Below are positions 5,509 to 64,000 of a stretch of DNA of 64,000 nt, piece by piece. Source of the DNA: a virus. Numbering within the stretch: the stretch's first letter is position 1; every line of letters begins with the position of its first letter. The position numbers and the translations under genes are program-made. Under the pieces are notes generated by a model that saw only the letters and a list, made by a program, of their open reading frames with translations, was not told the origin of the DNA and did not search any database. The DNA lies in IMG/VR virus record IMGVR_UViG_3300017991_000012, positions 16,108 to 80,107 of that record; one strand, written 5' to 3'.

Positions 5509-5699
5509 AGATCCTCCACTCCGTCCTTGAACCCCATGAGCCACGCCTTCCGGAAACCCCAGCCGCCGGCCTTGCGCTTGTACTGGCAGTCAGCTGTTCC
5601 CTTGCCGGTCATCGCAGCATCGTATCCTTTCAGGTATCCAGCCTGGTGCGCCTTGCTCGTGATCTTGTCCACGCCCTTGAGAAACATGCGCCTGGTCAT
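5505..5699 (-). CDS. Rmf/CrpP-fold (ribosome modulation factor-like) protein
   Basis: AGYLKGYDAAMTGK...CQY...RKAWLMGF resembles RMF RGYQAG..G....CPY....WLGGW. Confidence 0.6.
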   Translation of the reverse strand: MTRRMFLKGVDKITSKAHQAGYLKGYDAAMTGKGTADCQYKRKAGGWGFRKAWLMGFKDGVEDL

Positions 5700-6310
5700 T
5701 TCATGCGCCTATCAACGTCAGGCAGCTTGATCTTCTGAAAAGACGCCAGCCTGGACGCTATCCGCGGCTGCCATCGATGGATCCGGTCCAGTCCCATCTC
5801 GGTCGTCACGATCGTCTCGCGCATACGGTTTATCCGGTTACTGAGGATCAGGTAGAAGGTGCTTACCGAATAGTCGCTGCGCTTCTCGGCGCCGAGATCG
5901 TCCAGCAGCAGCAGCGGAACCTTTGAGTATCGATCGACCACCTGCATTTCGCTTGTCTCTGACTTGGCGTCGAACGACGACCGGATCCTTAGCATCAACT
6001 CCGGCACCGAGATCCAAAGCCACTCCTGGTCCTTGATGCGATCGACGAGTATGGCTGTGGCCAGGTGCGTCTTTCCAATTCCAGTCGGCCCGCTCAAAAA
6101 GAATCCGCCCTTGTTCCAGTCCACCTTGATGCCGTCGAAATCAGCCAGCCTTGCCTGCCTGTACCTTTCCGGGATCCCTCTCAGGTCTGGGATGGACTTC
6201 TTGATCTGGTTCGACGTTGGCGAACTTATCTGGACGTTCTGCAGCACTCTGCGTGCCAGCTCGTTGATTGGACGAGCCTCTTTCTCCGCTGTCATTATCT
6301 GGACCTCCAT
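5696..6310 (-). CDS. DnaC/IstB-like AAA+ helicase loader
   Basis: IPERY, Walker A GPTGIGKT, Walker B LLLDDLGAE, RIASRL. Confidence 0.9.
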   Translation of the reverse strand: MEVQIMTAEKEARPINELARRVLQNVQISSPTSNQIKKSIPDLRGIPERYRQARLADFDGIKVDWNKGGFFLSGPTGIGKTHLATAILVDRIKDQEWLWISVPELMLRIRSSFDAKSETSEMQVVDRYSKVPLLLLDDLGAEKRSDYSVSTFYLILSNRINRMRETIVTTEMGLDRIHRWQPRIASRLASFQKIKLPDVDRRMK

Positions 6311-6968
6311 TCTTCATGTACCGCTGCAGCGTGCTATTCATCCAAGACATCGGGTTGTTTGGTTTGCGCCTCTCAGTGTTTGCCAGCGCCTCGTAGATCC
6401 AGTCTTCTGGATACATCTTCAGCCAGTTTCTCAGGTTCACCAGGCAGTCGCCAAGTACTCTGAAAGCATGCTGCTGTAGATCTTTCGATATATGAATTTG
6501 AGACTCCGACTCGTCCTCTCCCTCCTCTCCTTCCACTCCTTTCCCTCCCTCCCTCTTAGGCGCTACCTCAGGTTCTTGCGGTATACACGCGGTATCCTCC
6601 AAGTGCCTATCAGATGGATACTGGATGCGCACCCATCCAACTTCTTCGCTGGCGCAAACTTCCAGAGTATCGACTATCGTTTTCTCTGAAAACCTTGTCA
6701 TCATCGCGATCTCTTCTGGTGTCCACGCGGTACCATCTGGGTATCCGTCATGTGTCATCCAGCCGTCCCTCGGCTGCTCTTGACGAGAACACAGGAGAAC
6801 CATCGCGCACCAAGCACCGTACATAGCTTCACCGCTTGGCTTCGACAGCAGCTTGCAGTAGCCAAGACCATTCTGCTTGTTTGGAACGCTACACCAACTC
6901 TTCCTTGCGATCGTCCGAGACTTCGCATTCTCAAAGTGCTTACCCCAGTTGACGATCTGATATTTCAT
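6141..6968 (-). CDS. phage replication initiator (replisome organizer-like)
   Basis: Directly upstream of the DnaC-like gene; IVNW..F N-terminus, HTH-like centre, DnaD-like C-terminus (NPMSWMNSTL). Confidence 0.65.
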   Translation of the reverse strand: MKYQIVNWGKHFENAKSRTIARKSWCSVPNKQNGLGYCKLLSKPSGEAMYGAWCAMVLLCSRQEQPRDGWMTHDGYPDGTAWTPEEIAMMTRFSEKTIVDTLEVCASEEVGWVRIQYPSDRHLEDTACIPQEPEVAPKREGGKGVEGEEGEDESESQIHISKDLQQHAFRVLGDCLVNLRNWLKMYPEDWIYEALANTERRKPNNPMSWMNSTLQRYMKNGGPDNDSGERGSSNQRAGTQSAAERPDKFANVEPDQEVHPRPERDPGKVQAGKAG

Positions 6969-7453
6969 TTTTGTTCCTCGACTTCCATGATGCGCTGCCC
7001 GTGGTCCCTGCAGCTGTCGGTCCATTCTCTTGCGACATCCATCATCATGCTTTTCATCGCGCTCATCTGATCAAGGTGACTCCGTATGGAAAAGAGAAGA
7101 GGAACCCATCGATCCAAGTCACAAGATCCTCGCGCCCCCACAATATCATCCTTGACGAAAAACGCGAATTCATGCATGGCTTCGTCGTTGAAAATGCATC
7201 CGAGTGCTTTCATCACATATTGCAGGTCATCGTCACCGTGATGTTTGCCGTGGCACTGGCTACACAGACAAACCAGATCGTTCACCGTTTCCGTTCCCCA
7301 TTCCTTTGGGTAACGGCGATGATGAACGTGCTTTGCCTTCCCTCCACACAGCACACACTCGCCGTTATCCATCGCCAACCGTTGCGCCCTGATCGTCTTC
7401 CACTTGTCGCTCTGCAGGTACTTCTGATAAGCGGCTTTTCCGTTCTTGGACAT
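6965..7453 (-). CDS. HNH endonuclease
   Basis: YL.SDKW..IR...CVLCG...HVHH..Y...NDLVCLCSQCH. Confidence 0.85.
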   Translation of the reverse strand: MSKNGKAAYQKYLQSDKWKTIRAQRLAMDNGECVLCGGKAKHVHHRRYPKEWGTETVNDLVCLCSQCHGKHHGDDDLQYVMKALGCIFNDEAMHEFAFFVKDDIVGARGSCDLDRWVPLLFSIRSHLDQMSAMKSMMMDVAREWTDSCRDHGQRIMEVEEQK

Positions 7454-7576
7454 GCCGATCTCCGCCAAAAGGCCCTCCCCAGCTGGACGGACCAACAGAG
7501 GATGCTGGTAGGAAGCTGGGTCAGGCCAGGAATAAGTCCGGTTGAATCCTTCCTCTGTTTTTTCCGTCCAGGTTCA

Positions 7577-10812: not shown

Positions 10813-11171
10813 TTCTCCTCGTCTGATTGCCAACTCGTTCCGCCTATGCAGATCGCTCCAGGATCTTCTCGCCATTCTACGATGGTTTGATTGAATACAT
10901 TCTCGTCGCGTTCAGTCCACGTTCCTTTGGCCTTTTCGTATGCGCGAATCAGCCTGTACACCTCCAGGTAGTACGGTTCGTCACAGGCCACGACAATGAA
11001 CGGCTTGCCTTTTTTCAGCAGCTTTCCTGCCCTGCTATCAAGAAGGAACTCCATCTCTGCCACTCGCTTCTGTTCCTCGCGGCGAATCTGTGCTTGGATC
11101 TGCCGCTCCTCGCGGCGAATCTGTGCTTGGATCTGCCGCGCCTTTTGTGCCTTCGTCAGCTTCTTTGTCAT
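10809..11171 (-). CDS. hypothetical protein
   Basis: ORF with AAGGAG RBS; contains an 11-aa duplication. Confidence 0.6.
   Translation of the reverse strand: MTKKLTKAQKARQIQAQIRREERQIQAQIRREEQKRVAEMEFLLDSRAGKLLKKGKPFIVVACDEPYYLEVYRLIRAYEKAKGTWTERDENVFNQTIVEWREDPGAICIGGTSWQSDEEK
11074..11139. repeat. exact 33-bp tandem duplication (RQIQAQIRREE x2)
   Basis: tcctcgcggcgaatctgtgcttggatctgccgc repeated twice. Confidence 0.95.
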
Positions 11172-12200: not shown

Positions 12201-12402
12201 CTCCCTGCCTCCATAGCCTCCGAATGAAGTTGATGATCATGGTCAAAAAAAGCACCGGCCACAACACCCCCGTGATTATGGCCAGCGCGTCCTGTCTGAA
12301 CTTGTGCTCCTGGCACAGATCCTCGTCGCCTACAATCGCTCCTTGAGCTACGTGGATCATCCAGGCTGCTATCAGCAGATAGGCCACAACTACCAGGCTC
12401 AT
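12139..12402 (-). CDS. small membrane protein (2 TM)
   Basis: Two hydrophobic segments. Confidence 0.55.
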   Translation of the reverse strand: MSLVVVAYLLIAAWMIHVAQGAIVGDEDLCQEHKFRQDALAIITGVLWPVLFLTMIINFIRRLWRQGDELGSDDSRGGEEDPPREGT

Positions 12403-13415
12403 TTCGCCGTCGCAGCCTCCTTCTCGTCGATCAGATTCAGGTACGTCGTGTAAACCGTTGACGCAGCAGCACTATCGCCAGGATGTAGCTCGTCCCAGCT
12501 ATCAAATCCGCACCTGTTCAGCGCCTCGATCACCATATCCGCGTTGTTCCTGCCGGCCTTTACCAGCCGCTGATAGGCCTCAGAAGGCTCCTGTGTGGCC
12601 TCGAACAGCGTGCCGTTGGATTCGGTATCCTCAGCCGCTTTCTTTGCAGTAGCGTCCTCTGGTGCGCCTCCTGTGGGCTTCTGGAAGGTATCCGGTCCCT
12701 TCGGTTGCGTGCCGCTGTCTGGCAACTGTGTCGTTTCGACAATCCTGGCCTCTCCCAGGTCCTCGATCTCACCATCCTGCTGTGGCATTCTGCCGTTGGT
12801 CACGATCTCCAGGATCTCGGCGCCCATCTTGCGCTTGGCCTTGGCTCTCACCGCGTCCGGACCCATCCTGCGGTTGACTACGATCTGGAACGTGCGCTCT
12901 ACCTTGCGCATCTCGCCATTGAATGAGAACTTGGCCCTGACCTGGACCGTCGCCTCGCGCTCGCCCGTGATCTTGTACGGCAAGACCTCCATCTCGTACG
13001 CGTCCATCTTCGGCAAGCGCTTCAGCTGGCTCTTCACCCCGTTCTTCGTCTTATACAGCTGCCCGCTGATGATATTGAAGTGGTTGCCGCAGATCGGCAA
13101 GCCCTGCATCGTGGCATCGATCAACACGTGCTTGACCACCGGCCACGGATACCCGCCCTCGTCGTCCTTGTCTGTCTTGAACCCCAGCGTGTGACCCTGC
13201 AGCCACATCACCGCATCCTTGATCTGAGGCGTGTCAATCAGCTCCGTCAGGGCCTTGATCGCCTCGCCCGTGCGTTGCATGTCGCTGAACGCGCCCACCA
13301 GATCCTCGCTAACCAAGCCGTTCAAGTAGTTCTCGCTGATCTCGGTCGCGATCTTGTCCAGCTCCATCAGCCGCTGCTCTCGCGTCATTACCTCCTGCTT
13401 TTCCTTTTTGGCCAT
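12399..13415 (-). CDS. putative single-strand annealing protein (RecT-like)
   Basis: Adjacent to the exonuclease gene; ATMQGL...HFNII..QLY.T.NG core; acidic tail. Confidence 0.5.
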   Translation of the reverse strand: MAKKEKQEVMTREQRLMELDKIATEISENYLNGLVSEDLVGAFSDMQRTGEAIKALTELIDTPQIKDAVMWLQGHTLGFKTDKDDEGGYPWPVVKHVLIDATMQGLPICGNHFNIISGQLYKTKNGVKSQLKRLPKMDAYEMEVLPYKITGEREATVQVRAKFSFNGEMRKVERTFQIVVNRRMGPDAVRAKAKRKMGAEILEIVTNGRMPQQDGEIEDLGEARIVETTQLPDSGTQPKGPDTFQKPTGGAPEDATAKKAAEDTESNGTLFEATQEPSEAYQRLVKAGRNNADMVIEALNRCGFDSWDELHPGDSAAASTVYTTYLNLIDEKEAATAK

Positions 13416-13462
13416 CGTTGGCTCCTCCCTACACAAAAAAAGTCCTCTTGCCGGATATTGTG

Positions 13463-13494
13463 AGTCTATCAGATGTCCTTCTCTTTGTCAAGTG
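13463..13494 (-). promoter_or_regulatory. sigma70-type promoter TTGACA-17-TAGACT
   Basis: CACTTGACAAA motif copy. Confidence 0.75.
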
Positions 13495-13501
13495 ATTTCG
13501 T

Positions 13502-14464
13502 CTACTCCCAGACCAATTCTCTCCTCACCAGCGTTTCGTCCACCTCCTTCTGCGCATCCTCGCATTGTCCAGGCCAACAGATCGGCTCGAACGGACACGG
13601 CTCGTTGTACATCCCCTGGCATGCGGTCGGGTTCTTCGGCCACTCGCCCGCTTCTTCGTACGATCTGAACAGCCTCACGGCCTGGACGATGATCTCGAAG
13701 ATGTAGTCGAATCGGATCGGTCTGAACCTGACCTCACCCGCGTCCTTGGCCACGCCCTTGACCGTCAGCAGCTTCGGCAGCTGAAAGCAGCCGATGTCGT
13801 TCACATCATCCCCGCCCAACGCAGCCCACAGATATCGGTAGAACGACAGCTGCGTGTTGTACATCGTCATCTTGGCCTTGTTCGCATCTGCCTTGCCGGT
13901 CTTGATATCGCGCAGGCACAGATGCTCATCCTCGGCCCTGACCAGCAGATCCATCCTGCCTCTCATGCAGAAATTCAGATCGGCTATCTCCTGTTCGGAA
14001 ATCTCCAGCCTCTCCGGGTTCGGATTCTGCGGATCGGCCTTGAGCCTGAATTCGCACTCGATCACGCTCTCAGACGGATACCGCTTCTCCTGCCAGACCT
14101 CCATCTGCGCCTGTGCTATCCTCGGCAGCCTGTCCTTCTCCTTCTCCGGCACCTCGACCGGCTCCTGCTCGCCTGTCGCAGGATCGATCGTCGCCTCCGT
14201 CTCCACCATCTGCCTTACCTCAGCCACCGCCAGCGCCGGATCCACATCGCCTTCGGCCGGCACCTTGTTCCCGTCCTTGTCCCTCTTGCTGTACGGTCTT
14301 TCAGCATGCTTGTGGATGATCGATCCGAACGGGAAATAATGCGGCGTCTTGCGCTTGCGCCAGCCGTCCGCGTACAGCTTGCATTTCATCGGGCACTCGT
14401 GTACGTTCATCACACGGACTCCGCTCCCTCCAGTAGGACTCACATACAGCTTCTTCAACTCCAT
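13502..14464 (-). CDS. PD-(D/E)XK exonuclease, AddB/Cas4-like with four conserved Cys
   Basis: ECP...FG..IH...RGRMDL...DIKTG...QLSFY...C...CPF...C. Confidence 0.85.
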   Translation of the reverse strand: MELKKLYVSPTGGSGVRVMNVHECPMKCKLYADGWRKRKTPHYFPFGSIIHKHAERPYSKRDKDGNKVPAEGDVDPALAVAEVRQMVETEATIDPATGEQEPVEVPEKEKDRLPRIAQAQMEVWQEKRYPSESVIECEFRLKADPQNPNPERLEISEQEIADLNFCMRGRMDLLVRAEDEHLCLRDIKTGKADANKAKMTMYNTQLSFYRYLWAALGGDDVNDIGCFQLPKLLTVKGVAKDAGEVRFRPIRFDYIFEIIVQAVRLFRSYEEAGEWPKNPTACQGMYNEPCPFEPICWPGQCEDAQKEVDETLVRRELVWE

Positions 14465-15589: not shown

Positions 15590-15856
15590 TCACGCTAGAT
15601 CGTAGAAAGTCGAAACCCCGACCTTGAACACCGCGCACAGTCCAGCCAGCACATCGCCACGCGGCTGAACCCGCCTGCCGTTCAGTAACTCGCGGATCAC
15701 GTACGGCCCGCACATAACGCCCCTCATCCCCAGCTCCTTCGCCAGGTCATACGCATCCAGCTTGTGTCTGCGCATCAGCGCCTCCAGCTTCTGCCGCTTG
15801 AACGGCGTCACCTGCGCCATGCGCTTCATCGTGCCCTTTGTCGATTTCTTTGCCAT
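15590..15856 (-). CDS. XRE/Cro-C1 family HTH regulator
   Basis: LEALMRRHKL...LAKELG...IRELLNG...P...LAGLCAVFKV. Confidence 0.75.
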   Translation of the reverse strand: MAKKSTKGTMKRMAQVTPFKRQKLEALMRRHKLDAYDLAKELGMRGVMCGPYVIRELLNGRRVQPRGDVLAGLCAVFKVGVSTFYDLA

Positions 15857-15929
15857 CGTCACTCCTCGCCTGCCGGTCCATACCATATCCAATCGGACCT
15901 GTCCTAGTCACTCCTTGACCCGCCTGCCG

Positions 15930-16217
15930 TTACTCTCTCTTCGACTTGCCGATCTCGATGTTCACGCCCTGTCTGGCTCTGATGCTTGTGGCGATCATCG
16001 ACTCATCGGCTTCTGTCGAGAACGCCGGGCAGTCGCCTTCCATCCACAGCGGATCAAACGACTGCGGAAAAGCGAACTGGCCCTGTACCTTTCCTCGTGC
16101 CGTGCTCTTTGGCATCTGGTGCTCGCTCTTGTCCCAGTCGTAGACACACGTGATGTTGATGTCGTTCTCGATCTCACGCCTGTACGCACACCTCGGACAC
16201 TTCGGGTTCTCCTGCAT
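15930..16217 (-). CDS. Cys-containing hypothetical protein
   Basis: CPRC...FPQSFDPLW..C. Confidence 0.6.
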   Translation of the reverse strand: MQENPKCPRCAYRREIENDINITCVYDWDKSEHQMPKSTARGKVQGQFAFPQSFDPLWMEGDCPAFSTEADESMIATSIRARQGVNIEIGKSKRE

Positions 16218-16228
16218 CTGGTGCCTTT

Positions 16229-17260
16229 CTAGTCGTTCACCGCCCTCAAGATCAGCTCGTACTCGCGATCGTCCAATGCGAATTCAGACACCTGCTCCTT
16301 TCCAAACAGCTTGCAGACCATGTCCCAGTTGTGCCCGCCTTTGCCAGGCCTCATCGACAGTCCACGGCTTTGTTCCTCCTTCAGCTTCCGTTCGGCCTCG
16401 ATCCTGGCCTGCTTCTCTGCCACGGCCTTGGCCTCAGCCTCTTCCTTGGCCCTGGTCTCTGCCTCTGCCTTTCGACGTTCCTCGGCCTGCTTCTGCTCTA
16501 GCAACTCACGCTCAGCCGCTTCCTTCGCCTTGCGTTCGGCCTCGATCTTCGCCTCAGCCTCTTGGCGAATCTTGCGCTCAGCCTCCTCTTTCGCCCTGCG
16601 CTCGGCTTCGATCTTGGCCTCTGCCTCTTCCCTGGCCTTGCGCTCCTGCTCCAGCTTCTCCCGCGCAGCCGCAAGCTCAGCCTGCTCCTTCTCGCGATCG
16701 AAGACTCTCACCAGCGCCCGGCCGATCTTCTGTACCGCCTGCGCCTTGATCGCCTCCGCATGCTCGGTAAATTCCGCAAAGTGCTCCTTCGTCACCTCTC
16801 TGGCGGTTACCTCTTCCAGCACCTGGCGGATCTGCTCCGACTTCATATCCTCCAGATCCAACGCCGCGTCGTTCATCTCCTGGATCCTGGCCTTGATTCC
16901 TTCGACTCGCTCGCGTTCGATCCGCTCCTTTTCCGCCTTCTCAGCAGCCTTCCTGTCATCCACCTCCTTCTTCGTCGCCTTCAGCGGCTGCTCGATCGAC
17001 AGCAGCTCGGCCGTGATCCTCTTGGCCTCTGCATCAACTCTGCGGCCCCACTCCAGCGCATCGGCCTTCAGCGCCTTGCGCATCTTCTCCACGCCCGTCC
17101 TGAGCGTCACGACCTCGCCAATCGCCTTGCGCACGTGATCGTAGCCCTCCCTGTCGCTGATCGTCAGGCCCGTGTACCGCTCCTTCAGATCCGCGATCGT
17201 CGCGTCCGTCACATCGTACTTCACAACTGCCGTCATCTTCTCGCCCGTTACCTCACTCAT
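16229..17260 (-). CDS. long coiled-coil phage protein (DUF1351-like N-terminus)
   Basis: RTGVEKMRKALK...GRRVDAEAKRI...IEQPL followed by E/A/K/R-rich repeats. Confidence 0.7.
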   Translation of the reverse strand: MSEVTGEKMTAVVKYDVTDATIADLKERYTGLTISDREGYDHVRKAIGEVVTLRTGVEKMRKALKADALEWGRRVDAEAKRITAELLSIEQPLKATKKEVDDRKAAEKAEKERIERERVEGIKARIQEMNDAALDLEDMKSEQIRQVLEEVTAREVTKEHFAEFTEHAEAIKAQAVQKIGRALVRVFDREKEQAELAAAREKLEQERKAREEAEAKIEAERRAKEEAERKIRQEAEAKIEAERKAKEAAERELLEQKQAEERRKAEAETRAKEEAEAKAVAEKQARIEAERKLKEEQSRGLSMRPGKGGHNWDMVCKLFGKEQVSEFALDDREYELILRAVND

Positions 17261-17380
17261 CATCTCCTCCTTTGCCGAAGGCTTGGGGCGCGGCCCGGAT
17301 TTCATCGCTACGGGACCGGCTGGTTACGGCGATTGCTCTATCCGTACGGCGCCCGAACGCCGCCGCGCCCTTGGCCAAAT

Positions 17381-18430
17381 CTATGCCTGGACCTCCTCGG
17401 CCGTCGCCAGCCTCTCGATCGTTCGCTGGTTCGCATACAGCAGTTGGCCACCCAACTTCTCCAGCTCATACCTGTTCTCAGCCTTCTCTTCCTTCTGGGC
17501 CGCGTTCGTCACGGCATTGACCATGCCGTAGAGGCTCAGTTCGCTCTCGGCACCAAAGGCGATGAACAGGTTGTCCTTCTGCGCCTCGCTCAGTTTGTAC
17601 TCGCGCACGAGGTTGTTGAGGAACACCCCCGCGTCCGGTATCTGGAAGTTGCCGCTCTGCTCGATCTTCTTCGCGATCTCGCCAAAGCTCTCGAACAGGC
17701 CCTTGACCGCCTGCTGCAGCGCGTTGTACAGATTCGCATCATCGCTGAGCGTGCCGCTGCCCATGTGGTATGCCTTCACCGCCTGCTGCTCGATCACAAG
17801 CCCGTTGCTGCATACCTGACGGTAGATCCTGGGCAGCACCTGCGTGCTGCTGTGGCCGGTCTCGCTATTCTTCAGCAGCATGCCGCCAAAGAAATCGTCG
17901 CCAACACGCATCCGGCCTTTCAGTTCATTGAACCTGCAGCTGACGAACATCTGTCGCTCTGTCAGATCCGCTCGCTCAAACACCAGGCCCTTGTCCTGGT
18001 GTCGATCCAGTTCGGCGCCGACGCAGTTGATCACGTCCAGGTTGTCGATCACGCGATAGCGATCGCTCAACAGCGCCCTGGCCTTGTCATCCATCGTTCG
18101 CAGCAAGTACTTCTTCTCCGGCTGCGCCGCGAACAGCGTATTGCACGTCGTCTGCCACAGATCCGGATGGTCGCCCAAGATCCTGTTGTAGAACTTGCGC
18201 GGAACATCAAGCCTGTCGGCTATCTGCTCGTGGCAGCCATCTCCGATCTCGTTCAAGATCGTCCCGCCATTCCACTCGTTCACTACTTTTCCGTCCTTGA
18301 CCTCCTCTCCTCGCGCAAATGAGATGCACGGCCCGTCCGAAGCATCCCTGACCATCATGCCGCTGGCCTTGTAGTCCACTTTCAACTCGTGTTGCCTCTG
18401 CAATTCACAAATCAGCCCTTGGAAATCCAT
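17381..18430 (-). CDS. DUF932/DUF945-family protein
   Basis: LLRT...ARALLSDRYRVIDN...NSETG....RQVCSNGL. Confidence 0.8.
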   Translation of the reverse strand: MDFQGLICELQRQHELKVDYKASGMMVRDASDGPCISFARGEEVKDGKVVNEWNGGTILNEIGDGCHEQIADRLDVPRKFYNRILGDHPDLWQTTCNTLFAAQPEKKYLLRTMDDKARALLSDRYRVIDNLDVINCVGAELDRHQDKGLVFERADLTERQMFVSCRFNELKGRMRVGDDFFGGMLLKNSETGHSSTQVLPRIYRQVCSNGLVIEQQAVKAYHMGSGTLSDDANLYNALQQAVKGLFESFGEIAKKIEQSGNFQIPDAGVFLNNLVREYKLSEAQKDNLFIAFGAESELSLYGMVNAVTNAAQKEEKAENRYELEKLGGQLLYANQRTIERLATAEEVQA

Positions 18431-18459
18431 GGCTTCCTCCTCCTGACTTTGCGTAATGT

Positions 18460-18651
18460 TCACGCGACCAAGACTTTCTGGGCATCTCCCTCGGATACCC
18501 TCACAATCTTCATGTGCTCGCGGCAGATGTGCCTGCGAATCGCCCGTTCGCCGCCAAGACGTACGGCCTGCGTCAGGTCCTGTTTGCACACCTCACAGCG
18601 TACTGTGATCGTGCTCATGTTCGGCCCACCAACCTCGACGCTGATCATCAT
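18460..18651 (-). CDS. small zinc-binding protein
   Basis: CEVC...ICREH; GGAGGAG RBS after promoter. Confidence 0.5.
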   Translation of the reverse strand: MMISVEVGGPNMSTITVRCEVCKQDLTQAVRLGGERAIRRHICREHMKIVRVSEGDAQKVLVA

Positions 18652-18671
18652 CACTCCTCCGATCTGGTTGA

Positions 18672-18703
18672 ATCCTACCCCACCGCCTCCGGTTTGTCAA
18701 GTG
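18672..18703 (-). promoter_or_regulatory. sigma70-type promoter TTGACA-17-TAGGAT
   Basis: CACTTGACAAA motif copy. Confidence 0.75.
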
Positions 18704-18728
18704 AAATTCGCCTCGTTTTGCGCGGAAT

Positions 18729-18998
18729 TTACGGTCCCGCTGGCCCAGCCCTGTATCCTATACTGTACACCTGCACGCTCTCCGTTCCTTCGCGCACAAC
18801 TCTAAGCTCAACCGCAGCATAGAATTCCACCGCCGCCTTGTACAGATCCAGCCTGTCCTTCGCCACGCACCTGTTGATCGGCGCCTTCCAATCCTCCGGA
18901 TCGCAGATCTCGTCAAACGCGCTCTGCAGCTCCACCAGGTCGAATCCCTTGTACGTGCCGGTCGTCATGATATCCAGCACCGTCTCTGCGCTGTTCAT
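18729..18998 (-). CDS. hypothetical protein
   Basis: AGGAGGAGGACG-ATG start; DWKAPI...AVEFY..GYRAG. Confidence 0.65.
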   Translation of the reverse strand: MNSAETVLDIMTTGTYKGFDLVELQSAFDEICDPEDWKAPINRCVAKDRLDLYKAAVEFYAAVELRVVREGTESVQVYSIGYRAGPAGP

Positions 18999-19369
18999 CG
19001 TCCTCCTCCTACCAGGTCCGGGAACCGCTCCGCGAACCAATCCTTGTACGGCTTCTGATTCTGTGCGATCGCCATCTCGATGCACAGATCGCCGTCGGCG
19101 TTCTTCCAGAACTCGTCGGCCTCGTACTTCGTCGCGCCGCAGAAAAACAGTACCTCTGCCTCTGGGTCCATGTCCTCGATCATCTTCTGCAGCTGTCCGA
19201 TGTTCATCACTCGTCCTCCTTCACACACGATTTTCGCCTCCGGATAAGCAGCGTTCGCCTCTGCCAACGATTCGAACTCTGCCTCCACGTCTTCAAACAT
19301 GCATATCGTTCCGCACCTGTCGATGTACAGCTTCTCGTCTCGCACATCGCGAATCACGAAATACGTCAT
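18995..19369 (-). CDS. hypothetical protein (apparent fusion; strong internal start at 19207)
   Basis: RBS motifs at both starts. Confidence 0.6.
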   Translation of the reverse strand: MTYFVIRDVRDEKLYIDRCGTICMFEDVEAEFESLAEANAAYPEAKIVCEGGRVMNIGQLQKMIEDMDPEAEVLFFCGATKYEADEFWKNADGDLCIEMAIAQNQKPYKDWFAERFPDLVGGGR

Positions 19370-19716
19370 TTCTCGTCCTCCGCCAGCTTGGCTCGAATCG
19401 CCTCATCGTACGCTCTGGCCTGGAACCCTCTGCCCAGGCACCCACGGGCCTCTGCGCCTACCACGCTGCATAGCGCACCAAGCACATCCAGGCCATAGAC
19501 GCCCATGCACTTCCAGATGATCTGGCCGTCGTTACCGAACAGCGTGCCCTTGGCCGATCCGTCAGATTCGACCACGTGCGCCACCTTCTTCACCGCCTCC
19601 TTCGGCCAGATTCGAAGAAACGCCTCTGGCTTCCAGACCGTGTGACCATCACCCTTGATCAGATCACACGCTGCCAAGATCTCGTCCCTCGTCAGCTTCT
19701 CCAACGGGTTACTCAT
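19366..19716 (-). CDS. hypothetical protein
   Basis: GGAGGACGAGTG-ATG start. Confidence 0.65.
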   Translation of the reverse strand: MSNPLEKLTRDEILAACDLIKGDGHTVWKPEAFLRIWPKEAVKKVAHVVESDGSAKGTLFGNDGQIIWKCMGVYGLDVLGALCSVVGAEARGCLGRGFQARAYDEAIRAKLAEDEK

Positions 19717-19922
19717 CACTCGTCCTCCTTCACAAGATCACTCGGCCTTACCCAGCGCTCGGCCTGATCTCCAGGCCCGAACTCGACTATCCACTTCTCC
19801 CAGCCTTCGTAATGCGGAAACTCGTGCGTCGACAGCTTCTTGACCAATTTCGCCTGGCCTTCCAGCACGTCCTTGCCTCTGCAGTTCTGGTTCCAGATCT
19901 GGAACAGATCGCCCTTCTTCAT
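19716..19922 (-). CDS. small hypothetical protein
   Basis: GGAGG RBS; stop/start coupled. Confidence 0.6.
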   Translation of the reverse strand: MKKGDLFQIWNQNCRGKDVLEGQAKLVKKLSTHEFPHYEGWEKWIVEFGPGDQAERWVRPSDLVKEDE

Positions 19923-19925
19923 CGT

Positions 19926-20123
19926 CTACCCTCCAAACGTCTCCCGCAACACGTCGACCGCGGCTTGCTTGCACACACACTCTTTCACCAATCCGCGGTT
20001 CGGTCCCAGCGCTCGGTAGGCCGTCTCCTTCGTGGCCCAGCCTCGCACTCCGTCTGCGCTGATCTGCGTGTACTCGAACTCCTCCACGTATCCGATCAGC
20101 TTGCCGTTCTCTCTCACGACCAT
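19926..20123 (-). CDS. small hypothetical protein
   Basis: TAG-GAGGACGAGG-ATG start. Confidence 0.55.
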   Translation of the reverse strand: MVVRENGKLIGYVEEFEYTQISADGVRGWATKETAYRALGPNRGLVKECVCKQAAVDVLRETFGG

Positions 20124-20133
20124 CCTCGTCCTC

Positions 20134-20382
20134 CTATACAAGGTTATGCCCACGAACCGGATCATGCGCGTCCCGCTCGTACTCGGCCTCGTCAACCATC
20201 CAGTCATTTGCCGCCTGGAACCACTCTTGGTACAAGAACTCTCGCTCCTTGGTCGTGACCTCGACCTCGTTGCCATCCTCGTCCTGGATCGAATCGATCT
20301 CAGGCTCGTCGTCCCACGTGCCGAACACCCACAGTTCTGTTCCGTCTGGCATCTCAATTTGCGTGTCGAATTTGCGGCTCAT
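20134..20382 (-). CDS. acidic small protein
   Basis: First gene after a promoter; AAGGAG RBS; Asp/Glu-rich. Confidence 0.65.
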   Translation of the reverse strand: MSRKFDTQIEMPDGTELWVFGTWDDEPEIDSIQDEDGNEVEVTTKEREFLYQEWFQAANDWMVDEAEYERDAHDPVRGHNLV

Positions 20383-20410
20383 AGCTTCTCCTTTTAACCA
20401 AGACATATGG

Positions 20411-20441
20411 AGTATACCACACATGCCTGGTTTGTCAAGTG
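20411..20441 (-). promoter_or_regulatory. sigma70-type promoter TTGACA-16-TATACT with TGn extended -10
   Basis: CACTTGACAAA motif copy. Confidence 0.8.
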
Positions 20442-20467
20442 AAAAAGCGTTTTTTTCGTCTTTCGTC

Positions 20468-20902
20468 CTACAGAATCCCCTCCTCCTGCATCGACAGATA
20501 GCCGTCGCCTACGATCACGCTGTCCAGTAACCTGATCCCCAGCAGCTCCGCGCACTCCTTCAGCCGCTTGATCAATACTCGATCCTCGTGGCTCGGCGTC
20601 GTGTCGCCACTCGGATGATTATGCACGAACGCGATCGCAGCCGCTCCGTCAACAATCGCCGGTCTGAATACCTCTCGTGGATGCACGAGACTCGCGGTCA
20701 GCGTTCCCAGGCTCACCAGGTGCTTGTCGATCAGCCGGTTCTTCTGGTTCAGCGTCACGACCAGGAACGCCTCCTGGCCCAGCTTTGCCGCGTCTTTCAC
20801 GGCCTTCACCAGGTCCCTGGCGTTCTTCACGTACGGTCCCTCGGTCTCGCGCACCTGCATCAGCTTCGCGTTCAAGCTCACTCCGAAGTAGCCTGCGCTC
20901 AT
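20468..20902 (-). CDS. radC: RadC-like JAB/MPN domain protein
   Basis: E.F.V..LN.KN.LI...GTL...LVHPREVF...HNHPSG...PS.ED...LLD. Confidence 0.92.
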   Translation of the reverse strand: MSAGYFGVSLNAKLMQVRETEGPYVKNARDLVKAVKDAAKLGQEAFLVVTLNQKNRLIDKHLVSLGTLTASLVHPREVFRPAIVDGAAAIAFVHNHPSGDTTPSHEDRVLIKRLKECAELLGIRLLDSVIVGDGYLSMQEEGIL

Positions 20903-20914
20903 CGTCCGTCCTCC

Positions 20915-21139
20915 TCACACGCGGATTGCGTCCAGTCCCAGCTCGTCAATCAGCGCACAATAGGCCTGGTACAGATCCTGGCTCGTGAAGCTCAGGCTCT
21001 TGTCCTGCGCTCCGAACCAGCAGTACAGGTACGAATGCACGATCGCCAGCTTGCCGGAATCAGCCAACACGTAGTAGTGATCGTCCCGTCGCGCCTTCTT
21101 CGCCAACTCCTTGATCTGCTCCTTGTTTGGTCCTGCCAT
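20915..21139 (-). CDS. small hypothetical protein
   Basis: TAG-GAGGAAGGACG-ATG start. Confidence 0.6.
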   Translation of the reverse strand: MAGPNKEQIKELAKKARRDDHYYVLADSGKLAIVHSYLYCWFGAQDKSLSFTSQDLYQAYCALIDELGLDAIRV

Positions 21140-21150
21140 CGTCCTTCCTC

Positions 21151-21345
21151 CTATGCAACCGCGGCTGTGGTGATCACCAGCCGACCGTCCCTGACCGCCT
21201 TCTCCAAGTGCTTGCACCACTTGGCGTCACGCCGGCTGAACTTCCAAGCCGGGCACGTGCAGTACACCACGTCGTCTGCTCCGCGCCTGATCTCGTACTT
21301 CTTGCCGGCCTTGCTCGCGCTTTCGACCTCGAATAGTACTGTCAT
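21151..21345 (-). CDS. SWIM zinc-finger protein
   Basis: YCTCPAWKF......CKHL. Confidence 0.8.
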   Translation of the reverse strand: MTVLFEVESASKAGKKYEIRRGADDVVYCTCPAWKFSRRDAKWCKHLEKAVRDGRLVITTAAVA

Positions 21346-21356
21346 CGTCCGTCCTC

Positions 21357-21548
21357 CTAGATCAGCCCGCAGATCTGACCCATGTATACGTTGTAGGCAC
21401 AGACCTCGTCGTCCGTCATCTCGGCCAAGACACTCATCTCGGCCTCTTCGTACTTATCCCACGTGCTCTCATCGTCATCATCCCAGCCACGCCTTCTGGC
21501 CTCGTCGAGCACGATCCTTCTGGTCTCTTGTCCGCTGATGCTCTTCAT
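21357..21548 (-). CDS. small acidic hypothetical protein
   Basis: TAG-GAGGACGGACG-ATG start. Confidence 0.6.
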   Translation of the reverse strand: MKSISGQETRRIVLDEARRRGWDDDDESTWDKYEEAEMSVLAEMTDDEVCAYNVYMGQICGLI

Positions 21549-21559
21549 CGTCCGTCCTC

Positions 21560-21933
21560 CTATGCGTTGTCAATCGCTCGCGCCAGCCCAATAACCTCTT
21601 GTTCAATCTCGTAGTGCCTGATCTTCTCGGCGCCCTTGCCAACCACGTTCTTGCACGAAAAGCAGTATGTTTCTCCCTCAATGCACTGTTGCACCCAATG
21701 CGCTATCTCGTGTGCGATCGTTAGGTACGACGCTCCAATCTTCACCCTGATGATGTGCTCTGCGAGCAGGTTGTCCTTCGTGAAGCCCTTGGCTATGTAT
21801 TCGCCTTCTGCTCCGCGCACGCCACCGACCTCGATGGTTGGGTCGTTCTCGTCCGCTATGCCATAGAACCTTCTTGCGCGTTCGGCCCAGGCCTCTATTT
21901 TGAAGGCTTTGATTTCCTTTTTTCCACTCTTCA
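21560..21933 (-). CDS. HEXXH metallopeptidase-like protein
   Basis: TIAHEIAHWVQ; first gene after the leftward promoter. Confidence 0.6.
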
Positions 21934-21968
21934 TGTCGCTCTCCTGAGTAGTGAACCAAGACAATAGT

Positions 21969-21999
21969 AGTATACACCACAGGCCACGTTTGTCAAGTG
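21969..21999 (-). promoter_or_regulatory. sigma70-type promoter TTGACA-16-TATACT with AT-rich upstream element
   Basis: CACTTGACAAA motif copy; A/T-rich 22001-22045. Confidence 0.8.
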
Positions 22000-22045
22000 G
22001 ATTTGTATTTATTTTGCTGTTTTTTCGTCGAGTTATTTTTGTGGA

Positions 22046-22711
22046 TTTTTGCCTGGAAAACTAATCGCTCTGAGGTGCGCTGGTTTTGCCTGCAAGTACT
22101 CGGTCTCGAAAGCGTACAGCTGTTGCCTGCAAAAGCAGCGTGTCGGATCGTGCGTGGTTTTGCCTGCGAAGCGGTGACCTCGCGTCGCGCCATGTTTTTT
22201 CTGGAAAAGCTGCGTCTCGTTTCGAATTGGATTTTGCCTGGGAAGTGCTCGTCTCCTTTCGTCGTGAGTTTTCCCTGCAAAATCTATCGCTCGGATCGTA
22301 TCACGTTTTACCTGGGAAAGTTTGGTCTCGAATCGCGACGGTTTTTGCCTGAAAATCGGATCGCTCGCTTCGTCACAGGTTTTGCCTGCAAAGCGTGTTC
22401 GTCTGTGCGTCACGTGTTTTTCCTGAAAAAGCTATCACTCGTTTCGGCGCAGGTTTTTCCTGGAAAAGTTCGACGTCAGATCGTGACGTTTTTTGCCTGA
22501 AAAAGCTGCCGCTCCATGCGTCGCAGTTTTTGCCTGAAAAAGCCGTGCGTCGAAGCACGTCAGGTTTTGCCTGGAAATTGTCCTGCTCGCTTCGTCACAG
22601 GTTTTGCAGCCTAGATCAGGCGCTCGGCGGGAGTCGTGTTTTGCCTGCGAAAGCTGCGCGTCACAGACGCGCCAGGTTTGCCTGCGAAGTGACGTGCTCT
22701 CAGAGCATGGT
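22046..22711. repeat. array of 18 degenerate 37-bp units (core GTTTTGCCTGNAAA ... STC ... )
   Basis: The GCCTG-equivalent core recurs at 22051, 22088, 22125 ... 22680, always exactly 37 bp apart. Confidence 0.95.
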
Positions 22712-22721
22712 GCTGTTGCAG

Positions 22722-22763
22722 AATAAAAATGGAGGCCTATCGCCGGGCGAACGATAGGCCTCC
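22722..22763 (-). terminator. intrinsic terminator ending the late operon
   Basis: 12-bp stem GGAGGCCTATCG/CGATAGGCCTCC followed by ATTTTTATT on the minus strand. Confidence 0.75.
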
Positions 22764-22798
22764 GGTGGGTAGCCGCTGGGCTGGCGGCTGGTATGGAA

Positions 22799-23122
22799 TT
22801 ACGGATCGCCCGGCGGATCCTCTTCCAGGACCTTGTTCTTGTTCGCTCTCGCCAGTCGATACAGCTTGCGGAAGGCAGCCGGGCTTAGGACGTAGAACTT
22901 GTCCAGGTCCTTCAGCTGCACCTCGGCCTGGTTGTAGTCGAAGATCTTGCCCTCACGGATCTGGTACGGCACCATGTCTGCCGGCACCACGTTGTTCGCA
23001 TGCGCCGGATTTCTGAACGGATTGCCGCAGCCATAAAAACCGAACAGCAGCGCCACGATCATCAATGCAGTCAGCATTTTGATGACAATGCCATCGGCAA
23101 GCCTGTTGCGGTTCTCATTCAT
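22799..23122 (-). CDS. lipoprotein, o-spanin candidate
   Basis: Signal peptide ending in lipobox-like FYGC; last gene of the late operon. Confidence 0.5.
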   Translation of the reverse strand: MNENRNRLADGIVIKMLTALMIVALLFGFYGCGNPFRNPAHANNVVPADMVPYQIREGKIFDYNQAEVQLKDLDKFYVLSPAAFRKLYRLARANKNKVLEEDPPGDP

Positions 23123-23130
23123 CTGCTCAC

Positions 23131-23256
23131 CTACTTTCTCTTCGGGCATTTCTGTCCCGCAGCCCGCCTTCGTCCGACTCCCCCCTTCTTTCCCTGGTAG
23201 CTCCCCTTGTACGGCCCAGTGCCGTCACGCACGCCACGTGCTGTCTTACCCATCAT
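23131..23256 (-). CDS. small basic Gly-rich peptide (RDGTGP motif, DUF5320-like)
   Basis: GAGGAG RBS; RGVRDGTGPYKG...GRRR...CP. Confidence 0.4.
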   Translation of the reverse strand: MMGKTARGVRDGTGPYKGSYQGKKGGVGRRRAAGQKCPKRK

Positions 23257-23479
23257 CGACTCCTCTCGTTTCTGGCCGTGGATCATCCAGCTCATCCACC
23301 AGCCTGCCCATTTCTTTGAGGTCGCCATCCAGTATGGCGTCATCCATCGAGTCCAGATCCTCGGTCAACGCATCGTCCGCTGCCATGTTCCGCTTGTCGC
23401 GCCTGACCTCCCGGCGCCAGCCGATGAACTCCGTGGCCGCAGCCAGCAAGCCGCCCAGCATTTTCAGGATGGTCATCAT
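23246..23479 (-). CDS. N-terminal TM protein, i-spanin candidate
   Basis: Hydrophobic N-terminus then a charged helix; upstream of the lipoprotein. Confidence 0.45.
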   Translation of the reverse strand: MMTILKMLGGLLAAATEFIGWRREVRRDKRNMAADDALTEDLDSMDDAILDGDLKEMGRLVDELDDPRPETRGVDDG

Positions 23480-23488
23480 ATCGGTCTC

Positions 23489-23770
23489 CTAGATCAGCGG
23501 CGGAGTTGCATCTATATCTGCGCCGCCGTACAACAGTCGGTTTGACATGATGAAAACGGCATAGATCGCTGCTAGATGCTTGGCACGCGCCTCCGTCACT
23601 TCTCCGTCAGCAACCTTCTTATCAAGATCATCGTTTCTGTAGCACAGCATTCTGCCGTCGAATATGAAACTCTCGTGCTCCTGCAGCGAGTGTCCGAATG
23701 CTTTATTCAACCGTTCGAGATGCCCAGGCGCCTCTTCGACAGTAGAACTCGTCAGTCCGAATTTGATCAC
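23489..23770 (-). CDS. hypothetical protein
   Basis: GTGA overlap with upstream gene. Confidence 0.55.
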   Translation of the reverse strand: MIKFGLTSSTVEEAPGHLERLNKAFGHSLQEHESFIFDGRMLCYRNDDLDKKVADGEVTEARAKHLAAIYAVFIMSNRLLYGGADIDATPPLI

Positions 23771-25929
23771 AGCACGTTCTCCCTGTACGCGAACTGGCCA
23801 AGCGGATTATCAGGATCGGTGAACGCATACGGCACGGTCAGCGTCAGATACGGCCCTCTGGTGCTTCCCTGCCTGGCGCAGATCGCGACGTAAACCTGCT
23901 GCTCCTGCGTGAACGGATAATCGTATTCACGCGGCGTCTCGGCCAGGACCGTCGCCGTCGGCTCGCCGCTGGTATTGACCGGACTCGTGGTGCTGATCCA
24001 GATCGCGAAGTCATCCGGCAGCAAGGTCCCGAACTGCTCTCGCCACACCCAGTACAGGACTGTCCTGCTTATCGTCTGGTCATAGGCCGGGCTGCACCAT
24101 TCCAATGCCGGAGGCCTGCTGCCCTCGACTTCGACAATTCCACCAGGGCTTCCCTCGATATGCACCCTCAGCGTCTGGCCCTGCAGCCAGTCCTGCCACT
24201 GATAGCCGGCCAGCCAAAAGCGCAGATCATACGTGCCTGGCGCGAGATTGATTCCGCTCAGCTCCAACGGACTCGCGCCGGCATCGATAAACCCCAGGTC
24301 GGTCACGGCCCCGGTCGCGACATTCACGGCCTCACATGTGTAGCCTGCTTTGGTCCACACCGGACTGTCGGCATCCAGCTGTACGCGCTTCAGGCCATAG
24401 ACCCTGTACTCTGGCGTGAACTGCAGACGCTTAAGCGTTCTGACATTAAACAGCTGGTCTTTTGCCAGTCTGCTTCGATTGCGGCTGACTATCCTTGCGT
24501 CAAGCTGCAATCTTGCTGCACCGCGGCCGTCTAGCGTTGCATCAAAACCAAGCCGCCTTGAGTACAGCAAACTCTTGAAATCCGGCGAGAAGTCCAGTCT
24601 GGCCATCGCCCTCGTATCGAGCACCGGATCGAATGCCAGGCGCTTGCTGTAGCTCACCGAGTACGGTGCCGTCGGCGGCGTGAAGTTGCTGGTCCACCTG
24701 GCCACGTCGCTGTATCTGAACTCGTCGACGTTGCCGTTCCAGTATCCGGCATTGCTTTCGCGCCTGGCCCCGATCTTTAATGTGTCATCAGAAATGCTCG
24801 TGCTGTCACTGCCGGTCGTGGCCTGCGCCACGCCATCGATGTACAGCGTACAGGTCCCGCTGGCTCTGACTGCAGCCATGTGATGCCAGGCATCGTCGTC
24901 AACAGCACTGTCGCTTGTCGCCCTCTGCGCACCTCCGACATAGAAGTCCAGTTTGCCATTCGAGGAATCGATGAGTATCTTTGCATTGTTCCCGCCATGA
25001 TCAAACAGCCTTCTGCTGTAGCCGCCCTGCGTGCTTCTGGTGGCGGTCTTGAACCAGCAGTCGATCGTGAAGTCGCTCGTGCCGACTCCGAAGTCGCCGT
25101 TACTGAACACGGCCGCAAACACCGAACTCCCATTCAGATTAAGGCTTGAAGTCCATTTCTTTGTAGTAACATCGAAAGCGCTATCATCGCGCAAATTGAT
25201 GCCGTGCGGACTCAGTTCAGCCGTTGCATTACAGTGCCAGAGGAAAACGGTATTCGCATCCGATTCATATTCCGCTGTTGCTGGCGTGAATCCGCTTGTC
25301 CATCGCGCCGTATTGCTGATTCTGTATTCGTCAAGATGCCCGTCTACATATTGGCTTGGGCTTGCCTTGCCTGAGCATGCGAATGTAACTTCGGACGATG
25401 CGTTGAAAAGACTGTCTGATCCTATCGATCCCGTTCCCTTCGCAACCCCATCATGGAAGAATCTTATCGTGCTTCCATCTCGCACAACCGACATATGATA
25501 CCAAGTATCGACGGATATAGTCAAACCATCCGAATACATCTGCGTTACGGTTCCCGATCCCCCATCCGTCGAATAAGTGAATTGCAGCTTATACGTTCCG
25601 GAATCATTGTAGAATCGAAATCCGAATGATCGCTGATTTGTTCCTGTCTCATACTTGGCGATCAGTGAAACGTTGCTTCCGCTTCCCGGAAGACTTGTGA
25701 ATCGAACCCAACATTCAAGCGTGAAATCTCCGCTTCCGAAGTCGAAATCAGAATGATCCGCGACCCATGCGAATTCGTTAGAGGCCGGATCGTAACTTGT
25801 CTCTCCGAACTTCTTGACGTCCTTGTCAAACTTGTTGGTGTTCTGTTCGAAGTTAAGCGTATGGCCGGTGTTGCCCACGTCGCCATAGAAGTGCAGCACA
25901 GTCAGCGCATTGGCATCGATGCCAGGCAT
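23767..25929 (-). CDS. tail tip/receptor-binding protein with two LamG (concanavalin-like) domains
   Basis: Two copies of DFG..DFT.ECW...WYH..VVR...G..DE.R.S..ARWT..FTP. Confidence 0.85.
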   Translation of the reverse strand: MPGIDANALTVLHFYGDVGNTGHTLNFEQNTNKFDKDVKKFGETSYDPASNEFAWVADHSDFDFGSGDFTLECWVRFTSLPGSGSNVSLIAKYETGTNQRSFGFRFYNDSGTYKLQFTYSTDGGSGTVTQMYSDGLTISVDTWYHMSVVRDGSTIRFFHDGVAKGTGSIGSDSLFNASSEVTFACSGKASPSQYVDGHLDEYRISNTARWTSGFTPATAEYESDANTVFLWHCNATAELSPHGINLRDDSAFDVTTKKWTSSLNLNGSSVFAAVFSNGDFGVGTSDFTIDCWFKTATRSTQGGYSRRLFDHGGNNAKILIDSSNGKLDFYVGGAQRATSDSAVDDDAWHHMAAVRASGTCTLYIDGVAQATTGSDSTSISDDTLKIGARRESNAGYWNGNVDEFRYSDVARWTSNFTPPTAPYSVSYSKRLAFDPVLDTRAMARLDFSPDFKSLLYSRRLGFDATLDGRGAARLQLDARIVSRNRSRLAKDQLFNVRTLKRLQFTPEYRVYGLKRVQLDADSPVWTKAGYTCEAVNVATGAVTDLGFIDAGASPLELSGINLAPGTYDLRFWLAGYQWQDWLQGQTLRVHIEGSPGGIVEVEGSRPPALEWCSPAYDQTISRTVLYWVWREQFGTLLPDDFAIWISTTSPVNTSGEPTATVLAETPREYDYPFTQEQQVYVAICARQGSTRGPYLTLTVPYAFTDPDNPLGQFAYRENVL

Positions 25930-63624: not shown

Positions 63625-63992
63625 CTGCCTTCCAGCTTCTCTATGATGCTCGTGATTCTGACAGTAACCTTTTCGACAGATTGCTGCACCTGGTCTTTTG
63701 TTATCCATCGATCCCATGCCGCTGCATACAGCGGATCGACAAGCAGATGGCAGACCTCGTGCAGTGCTGTAAATCGCGGATGCCTATCATGGATGCCACG
63801 TACAGTTCTGCTATACCAGAAGCTGACGATCGCCGCCTCGCTGTCAGCATCGGTCGTGGCTATGACCGCCTTATCATCATAGTCCTGGTGATAGAATCTG
63901 AACTCCCAATCGAGCAGACCGAATTTCTTTCTGTAGTACAGCGCCCATTTCTTGAATTGCAAAAACTCCGACCTCGATGTGGTCTTCGCCAT
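63618..63992 (-). CDS. HEXXH metallopeptidase-like protein
   Basis: GL.DW...TALHEVCHLL. Confidence 0.6.
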   Translation of the reverse strand: MAKTTSRSEFLQFKKWALYYRKKFGLLDWEFRFYHQDYDDKAVIATTDADSEAAIVSFWYSRTVRGIHDRHPRFTALHEVCHLLVDPLYAAAWDRWITKDQVQQSVEKVTVRITSIIEKLEGRC

Positions 63993-64000
63993 GCTCAGCC

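Follow-up and report, generated by a model that had tools for sequence, protein, structure and literature searches.

Results

Genes and Signals Flanking the Array

The window analysed here is a stretch of 64,000 nucleotides (positions 16,108 to 80,107) of the 80,107-bp IMG/VR virus record IMGVR_UViG_3300017991_000012; coordinates refer to this window unless genome coordinates are indicated. All credible genes lie on the minus strand, and the GC skew is negative throughout. The phage is siphovirus-like, with a portal, a major head protein, a tape measure, TerL and a LamG-domain fibre identified. A 495-aa protein encoded just upstream of two tiny ORFs and TerL (L006:2689-4176 in genome coordinates) has the central domain of the DNA polymerase III beta clamp and no other part of it. 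A terminase small subunit was not recognised anywhere in the genome; the PHROG match to this family traced back to an HNH domain in the ORF at 6965-7495. The 123-bp end repeat of the record (genome 1-123 and 79985-80107; window 63878-64000) sits inside a 124-aa minus-strand ORF spanning the junction and therefore comes from overlap in the assembly of a circular or permuted map; it is no physical terminal repeat.

At 834 bp, the gap filled by the array described below is the longest stretch of the genome free of genes. In coding-strand order, the last late gene is followed by a terminator, the array, an A/T-rich stretch, the early promoter and the first early genes. The last late gene, P0002 (22799..23149, minus strand), encodes a small protein of 116 aa with a membrane anchor and a lipobox-like stretch which, as read from its sequence, may be a spanin. 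The intrinsic terminator of the late unit of tail and lysis genes (22731..22763, minus strand) has a 14-bp stem, a 5-nt loop and the T-run tail ATTTTTATTC, and abuts the array. On the other side, 49 bp of A/T-rich spacer (21997..22045) separate the last core from the -35 box; this spacer holds TGTGGATTT, a 7/9 match to the DnaA box, and could be UP-element-like. The first early promoter, TTGACA-16 nt-TATACT (21969..21996, minus strand), is an 11/12 match and points away from the array. Both the terminator and the early promoter had been called in an earlier, sequence-only reading of this DNA, and both were recovered here (at 22763-22731 and 21996-21969, respectively). The same reading placed the array at the late/early junction, which is correct as a map position, a statement about the map and not about a physical chromosome end.

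The first early gene, P0001 (21560..21934, minus strand), codes for a 124-aa protein with a HEIAH motif that is a sequence orphan among 5.8 billion proteins; language-model and structure look-alikes suggest that it might be SprT-like, which we take as a lead only. It is followed by genes for a RadC-like JAB protein (20468-20902) and a DUF932 protein (17381-18589), and the set formed by these two and the SprT-like P0001 in the first early operon (17381-21934) resembles the anti-defence 'leading regions' of conjugative plasmids. A sigma-70 scan of both strands from 21500 to 23300, to which phage-specific promoters are invisible, revealed no other promoter-like site. Judged by sigma-70 signals, the array is predicted to lie in a transcriptional dead zone.

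Eighteen Units Share an Exact 37-bp Register

The array (22046..22711, plus strand) consists of 18 head-to-tail units, each of exactly 37 bp, which are in perfect register when laid out in steps of 37. Autocorrelation over 22001-22760 reached 0.51-0.55 at lags 37, 74, 111 and 148, while every other lag stayed at or below 0.36. The sequence-only reading, which had also proposed an autocorrelation plot, had reported 18 units, an exact 37-bp period and no indels, and the layout and the autocorrelation agree with it. The unit consensus is GTTTTGCCTGnAAAa-(7-8 drifting bp)-(C/G)TC-gna-TCG-nnnCng, with the core in the same orientation in all units. Column counts gave 18/18 for T4, T5, A13, T24 and C25, and 17/18 for T2, T3, C7, C8, T9 and G10. 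Only C (13 units) and G (5 units) occur in column 23, as expected from the earlier remark that a TC at positions 24-25 of every unit is always preceded by C or G; columns 29-31 lean to (T/G)CG (T10/G7, C13 and G14). The units are highly diverged, their mean pairwise identity being 56%.

When up to two mismatches were allowed, GTTTTGCCTGNAAA matched 17/18 units, all on the plus strand. Outside the array it was found at 2 places in the 64 kb of the window, against about 1 expected by chance, and at none in the other 16 kb. The shorter word TTTTNCCTG has 14 copies in the array and 1 elsewhere in the 80 kb. Unit 10 (22379..22415, plus strand), one of the two units with a zero-mismatch GTTTTGCCTGNAAA core, served as the reference unit. 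The CCTG at its centre makes the core directional and not a true palindrome. The observed 37-bp array is far from chance.

A total of 218 substitutions from the consensus were counted and the net number of indels was zero. The substitutions are spread very unevenly across the unit (chi-square 110.6, df 36, p=1.6e-9), and 11 of the 37 unit positions show at most one change, compared with 0.67 expected under an even spread. Assuming indel:substitution ratios of 0.03-0.1, between 6 and 22 indels should accompany 218 substitutions, and the probability of finding none is 1e-3 to 3e-10. Since no net indel is present where 6-22 were expected, the register itself is under selection. Unit 16 (22601..22637, plus strand) leads to the same conclusion: its core is scrambled (GTTTTGCAGCCTAG...), yet CTC at positions 23-25 is kept and the unit remains in register with units 15 and 17. 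The selection on spacing that the sequence-only reading had deduced from strict length and heavy divergence is thus upheld by the absence of net indels, and the uneven spread speaks for selection on the core.

The conserved patches, as read from the column counts, are centred at about 3.5, 13.5, 24.5 and 35 in the unit. With 10-11 bp between them, they would share a helical face, opposite to that of CCTG (8.5) and CG (30.5). As 37 bp correspond to about 3.5 turns, successive units show their conserved face on alternate sides. A higher-order period of 74 bp (about 7 turns) would split odd and even units into two in-phase sets. A periodogram of A/T tracts had no power at 10.5 bp; the power fell at 12.3 and 9.25 bp alone, both harmonics of 37. 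Intrinsic curvature of the DNA is therefore rejected, and a wrapping platform that depends on it is not supported. Of the phased binding or wrapping platform put forward in the sequence-only reading, the DNA-level interpretation is the best supported; intrinsic curvature lends wrapping no support.

Two further readings were rejected. ORFs across the array exist solely through scarcity of stop codons, and a coding function would place the conserved core in all three frames on account of the 37-bp period. Motifs for sigma-54, IHF, Fis, CRP, LexA and CsrA were checked by eye and none of them fits across the units.

The Drifting Segments Are Diverged Copies of One Another

The segments between the conserved patches are unequal in length (7-8 nt versus about 6 nt) and related between units, with a positional identity of 35% compared with 26% in the null (z=12). 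Tandem Repeats Finder (TRF) reports higher-order periods of 74 and 148 bp; even lags outscore odd lags in the drifting positions, and the best-partner lags are 2, 4 and 6 units. The higher-order periods and best-partner lags show that blocks of units were duplicated as the array grew, which makes the 'variable' parts decayed copies instead of captured spacers. These parts are diverged, as had been noted before, but they are not free, since positional homology is kept. Comparison of the drifting segments with the rest of the phage genome, as suggested earlier, showed no meaningful enrichment of matches.

Growth of this kind raises the alternative that the array is a functionless, decaying minisatellite, which slippage or unequal crossing-over produced in a tolerant gap between genes and which is drifting now. 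Block duplication and higher-order periods, here of 74 and 148 bp, are what satellite dynamics typically produce, no relative found shows a conserved counterpart, and the proteome scans gave no partner protein. Nevertheless, drift would spread the substitutions evenly, which is at odds with the p-value given above and with the 11 near-invariant positions; zero indels among 218 substitutions are very unlikely under neutrality, and unit 16 stays in register despite its disrupted core. In addition, the array is the same wherever it could be compared. We compared four DNA runs from different studies and years as assembled contigs covering part of the array, and contigs of the same phage from three other studies (sediment 2018, seawater 2021) were identical over 22149-22669. 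This identity gives no sign of VNTR-type or other rapid length instability. We therefore consider a decaying minisatellite quite unlikely.

The Array Lacks the Hallmarks of a Guide-RNA Array

The units could also be thought to act as RNA, with the array transcribed and cut into 37-nt pieces that guide or bind an effector, be it TIGR-like, a type III antitoxin or pseudo-ToxI decoy, or a member of an undescribed class. TIGR systems are frequent in phages, a 37-nt unit is close to the 36-nt tigRNA, the unit length is exact, and the units look bipartite, a conserved part being followed by a variable one. Type III antitoxin repeats measure 34-45 nt, a range into which the 37-nt unit falls.

As a positive control we used the array of Salicola phage CGphi29 (NC_020844, 15365-15763), whose TIGR-TasH system has been established experimentally (PMC12045711, PMC13421893). 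TIGR units of the dual-repeat type are built of two alternating 8-12-nt repeats (edge and loop) with covarying box D and box C motifs in common, and of two unrelated spacers of equal length (about 8-12 nt); the arrays adjoin a tas gene, close with a terminator and are processed into RNAs of unit length (Faure et al. 2025, PMC12045711). In the CGphi29 array we found two 10-nt repeats, both AAG...CCA, and two 8-nt spacers, directly after tasH and with a terminator at the end, as the papers describe; one of its units is 37 nt long instead of 36. With a score of 40, TRF misses this array, which is detected by sliding autocorrelation (lag 36, 0.55).

Both arrays are phage-borne, have exact units of 36-37 nt with conserved and variable stretches, and give similar autocorrelation at the unit period (0.54 in the 37-bp array versus 0.56 in CGphi29). 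They differ in the remaining features. CGphi29 shows a half-period signal of 0.45 at lag 18, whereas the 37-bp array reaches only 0.24-0.26 at lags 18/19. The second conserved element of its units, CTCgnnTCG, has no motif in common with the 14-nt core, box C/D-type or other, so that the dual repeat with shared boxes and pseudo-two-fold symmetry is absent. The spacers of CGphi29 are unrelated between units (24% versus 25% in the null, z=-0.7), whereas the variable parts of the 37-bp array are homologous between units and, as described above, unequal in length. A terminator at the array end, as in CGphi29, is missing as well. Half-period symmetry and spacer homology thus separate a guide array cleanly from the 37-bp array, which makes the latter an instructive negative case for programs that search for TIGR- and CRISPR-like arrays: an exact unit length with conserved and variable blocks is insufficient to call a guide array.

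No effector gene was found either. The genes flanking the array encode the SprT-like protein and the small membrane protein, and there is no adjacent tas gene with a Nop domain. Six-frame searches gave no match to PF01798 (E<=1), PF21572 or PF02371 (E<=10), so that neither Nop, Nop5-N nor IS110-type domains were detected, although a very divergent Tas could escape a sequence search; PF13958 (ToxN) had no six-frame match. In tblastn with the TasH of CGphi29 against the genome, nothing better than an E-value of 0.82 was obtained. The array has no promoter feeding it, and on the coding strand a strong terminator stands just upstream. At the RNA level, Rfam yielded no match at gathering thresholds, RNAalifold with the units treated as homologous sequences predicted no consensus pair on either strand, and a pairwise column covariation scan within the array found nothing in register. 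Whole-array folds with z=-4.3 and z=-3.8 were discounted, as the repeats pair with one another. No RNA data set is included among the sequencing runs listed as carrying the phage.

Two related classes were rejected. CRISPR arrays have repeats of about 23-50 nt and unrelated spacers of similar size, with a period of about 55-75 bp; with its 14-nt core, its 37-bp period and the homology of its spacers from unit to unit, the phage array differs on all three counts. ToxI arrays are near-identical tandem repeats of 34-45 nt that lie behind a promoter and are followed by a terminator and a ToxN-family toxin gene, and a ToxI-like or pseudo-ToxI array is not compatible with units that are only 56% alike, no promoter and no PF13958 match. 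As regards mimicry of a host ToxI, the array motif pattern was absent from 185,579 prokaryote species (one genome each).

Because three defining features of TIGR arrays are missing (half-period symmetry, equal unrelated spacers and an adjacent tas gene), the guide- or antitoxin-RNA reading keeps a small residual probability, and overall we judge a processed RNA of any sort to be improbable. Its particular form in which a phage-specific promoter or read-through would supply transcripts cut to 37-nt RNAs, for an effector unrelated to Nop/Tas, Cas and ToxN, seems very unlikely to us; such RNAs would constitute a new class of phage tandem small-RNA systems with units evolving by duplication and drift, not by spacer capture. 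The sequence-only reading had ranked a DNA-level platform above a guide-RNA array. The effector, promoter, fold, symmetry and spacer tests support this order, and the variable segments cannot be regarded as independent spacers.

The Phage Belongs to an Isolated Lineage

The phage is, on sequence comparison, an isolated lineage. Blastn of 20000-25000 against cultured phages and of the gap against plasmids returned nothing, and IMG/VR single-protein locus searches with the fibre protein, P0001 and the major capsid protein yielded no relative. Identity to cultured phages does not exceed 26% in the capsid protein or TerL. Profile searches of IMG/VR with TerL and DUF932 retrieved relatives of at most 33% identity, whose loci, when scanned for periodic arrays, contained only coding or simple repeats. 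The nearest homologues were found on Logan contigs, with 54% identity for DUF932 (P0004), and 67% (P0127) and 39% (P0128) for TerL.

Pattern searches gave a similar picture. The two-core pattern hit 5 unrelated loci in IMG/VR, and the three-core pattern had at least 120 matches in metagenomes, which among the matches listed were unrelated and mostly near-identical tandem repeats. Stricter patterns had no match in IMG/VR or in the 185,579 prokaryote species, one genome each, where a looser pattern produced 2 unrelated matches. Thus, the syntenic array in related phage contigs that the sequence-only reading had proposed to look for was not encountered: no relative found among cultured phages, IMG/VR, prokaryote genomes and the metagenome matches listed has a comparable array.

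Some intergenic repeats came up on the scanned contigs. Two unrelated IMG/VR phage contigs (L003:11800-11960 and L001:4910-5240) contain clusters of TTTTGCCTG words and, with them, inverted repeats of the form TGCCT...AGGCA. These clusters resemble iterons or operators, and their sharing of a word with the array is probably coincidental. In a Prevotella MAG (L291:3240-3370), AAAAACAGGGAAAAAC words and then TTTTTCCCTGTTTTT words form a mirror-like block that resembles an origin or a set of iterons and is unrelated to the phage.

Discussion

A Proposed Row of Protein Sites as the Best Explanation

A directional core, a second conserved patch, free drift elsewhere, strict register and a single orientation within one apparently untranscribed gap are the signature of a row of protein sites. 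We consider it moderately probable, and the best explanation at hand, that the array is a double-stranded-DNA row of directional protein-binding sites under selection for register, the binding itself being what we infer from this anatomy. The array would then act as double-stranded DNA and not as RNA, and its 18 sites of the same orientation would be bound by one sequence-specific DNA-binding protein of phage or host origin. Each site would be read through the short directional core (TTTT-n-CCTG-nn-AA) and the CTC about one helical turn further. Bound protomers would have to touch or to fit a fixed lattice, which would account for a register of exactly 37 bp in the face of drift at about 21 other positions per unit. 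Growth of the array by duplication of 2- and 4-unit blocks would have been followed by divergence under the lattice constraint, and the resulting nucleoprotein track would span the whole seam from the late terminator to the first early promoter.

Besides the absence of a comparable array in the relatives found and of A/T-tract power at 10.5 bp, two observations weigh on this reading. Known iteron and centromere arrays usually repeat at whole helical turns and not at 3.5, which counts against a protein track. Proteome scans of the phage provided no candidate binder, yielding only a Cro/CI-type HTH protein (15590-15892), a sub-threshold ParB_N-like protein and several HNH and zinc-finger proteins.

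Should a protein indeed line up along it, the array would be one of the rare natural examples in which strict phasing over a long stretch is combined with half-integer helical spacing, so that neighbouring protomers sit on opposite faces of the helix. The array also occupies the one site of a one-directional phage genome at which packaging signals, chromosome ends and the first early promoter come together and, if the row of protein sites is real, it would offer a handle on how this seam is organised in an uncultured, taxonomically isolated siphovirus lineage.

Comparison with Known Repeat Arrays

The array belongs to a known kind, the phased protein-binding repeat arrays; its half-integer helical period, its 18 highly diverged units and its orphan lineage are what is unusual. 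In form it is close to sopC of the F plasmid, with long head-to-tail units of about 40 bp, a short conserved motif resembling a protein site within a freer spacer, and strict length. F sopC comprises 12 direct 43-bp repeats, each with a SopB-binding inverted repeat. Its units are near-identical, span about 4 whole turns, contain a true palindrome and lie next to sopAB, whereas the phage array has 56% unit identity, about 3.5 turns, a directional core and no partition ATPase.

This likeness suggests a plasmid-type centromere, bound by a ParB-family protein and segregating a plasmid-prophage. Like sopC, the array lines up direct repeats of about 40 bp, a short near-dyad motif being present in each, and one weak ParB_N-like protein is encoded in the genome (L006:7877-8695; 18.5 bits versus a cut-off of 26.3). 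Its gene, however, lies 30 kb from the array beside a Dam-like/GNAT DNA-modification gene and has no evident HTH region, the core with its CCTG centre is no true palindrome, and no ParA, ParM or TubZ-type NTPase, integrase or plasmid-maintenance family was present among the 70 early proteins scanned. Neither of the components that define sopC or parS systems, a cognate ParB-type binder and a partition NTPase, was found. Given that there are no partition NTPase and no lysogeny genes, a sopC-type centromere is extremely improbable. A fusion of 482 aa, with a phage Dam-like and a phage GNAT-like domain, overlaps the sub-threshold ParB_N-like protein of 272 aa (L006:7877-10064, genome coordinates), and this locus looks like a DNA-modification module.

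Candidate Roles at the Seam

For a row of protein sites, a chromosome-end, packaging or ejection site is the leading, though tentative, role, which we hold to be possible but rather unlikely. This map location is where T7 and other one-directional phages carry their chromosome ends, flanked by repeat arrays, and TerL shows a weak, sub-threshold match to the T7-type terminase model. The SRL/SRR repeats, which flank the terminal repeat of T7 and T3, are likewise gene-free and located at the seam between the last late gene and the first early promoter of a phage transcribed in one direction; a T7-like packaging region would lie at the physical termini or at the concatemer junction beside the terminal repeat. 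The repeats of T7 are short and irregularly spaced, and the p6 protein of phi29 reads bendability at a 24-bp period with no defined motif. The array, by contrast, repeats a defined motif at a period of exactly 37 bp, and the TerL link to T7-type terminases is weak.

The phi29 p6 system, a phased multimeric complex in early-promoter control and end functions, offers a parallel for control or insulation of the first early promoter, a role we regard as unlikely. By analogy, since the array lies directly upstream of this promoter, a repressive or insulating nucleoprotein complex formed in the manner of p6 is plausible. Functions other than ends or packaging, promoter control and an origin appear very improbable.

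A replication origin is a role that we hold to be slightly less likely than promoter control. The adjoining A/T-rich stretch and the DnaA-box-like word would fit an iteron origin, and the direct repeats with their fixed spacing recall theta-type origins (lambda ori with its O-some, R6K, RK2, P1 oriR/incA). In such origins the initiator-binding repeats adjoin an A/T-rich unwinding element, usually together with host DnaA boxes. Iterons are usually 17-22 bp long, occur in 3-9 copies at whole-turn spacing and lie in or beside the initiator gene. The array differs in having 18 units of 37 bp, an atypical size and number, and it has no adjacent initiator: the putative replication module, with a DnaC-like protein at 5696-6310, is about 15 kb away. 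Moreover, the A/T-rich stretch doubles as an upstream element of the promoter.

Elsewhere in the window, a near-exact 33-bp tandem repeat of 2.1 copies lies at 11074-11143, and a Logan assembly made independently for the phage (79,978 bp) seems to be broken at roughly this position. The regions 16229-17305 and 12399-14464 look like a recombination module, with a Glu/Lys/Ala-rich coiled-coil protein of 358 aa, a PD-(D/E)XK nuclease (13502-14464) and a 345-aa protein that, judged by eye only, may be a single-strand annealing protein.
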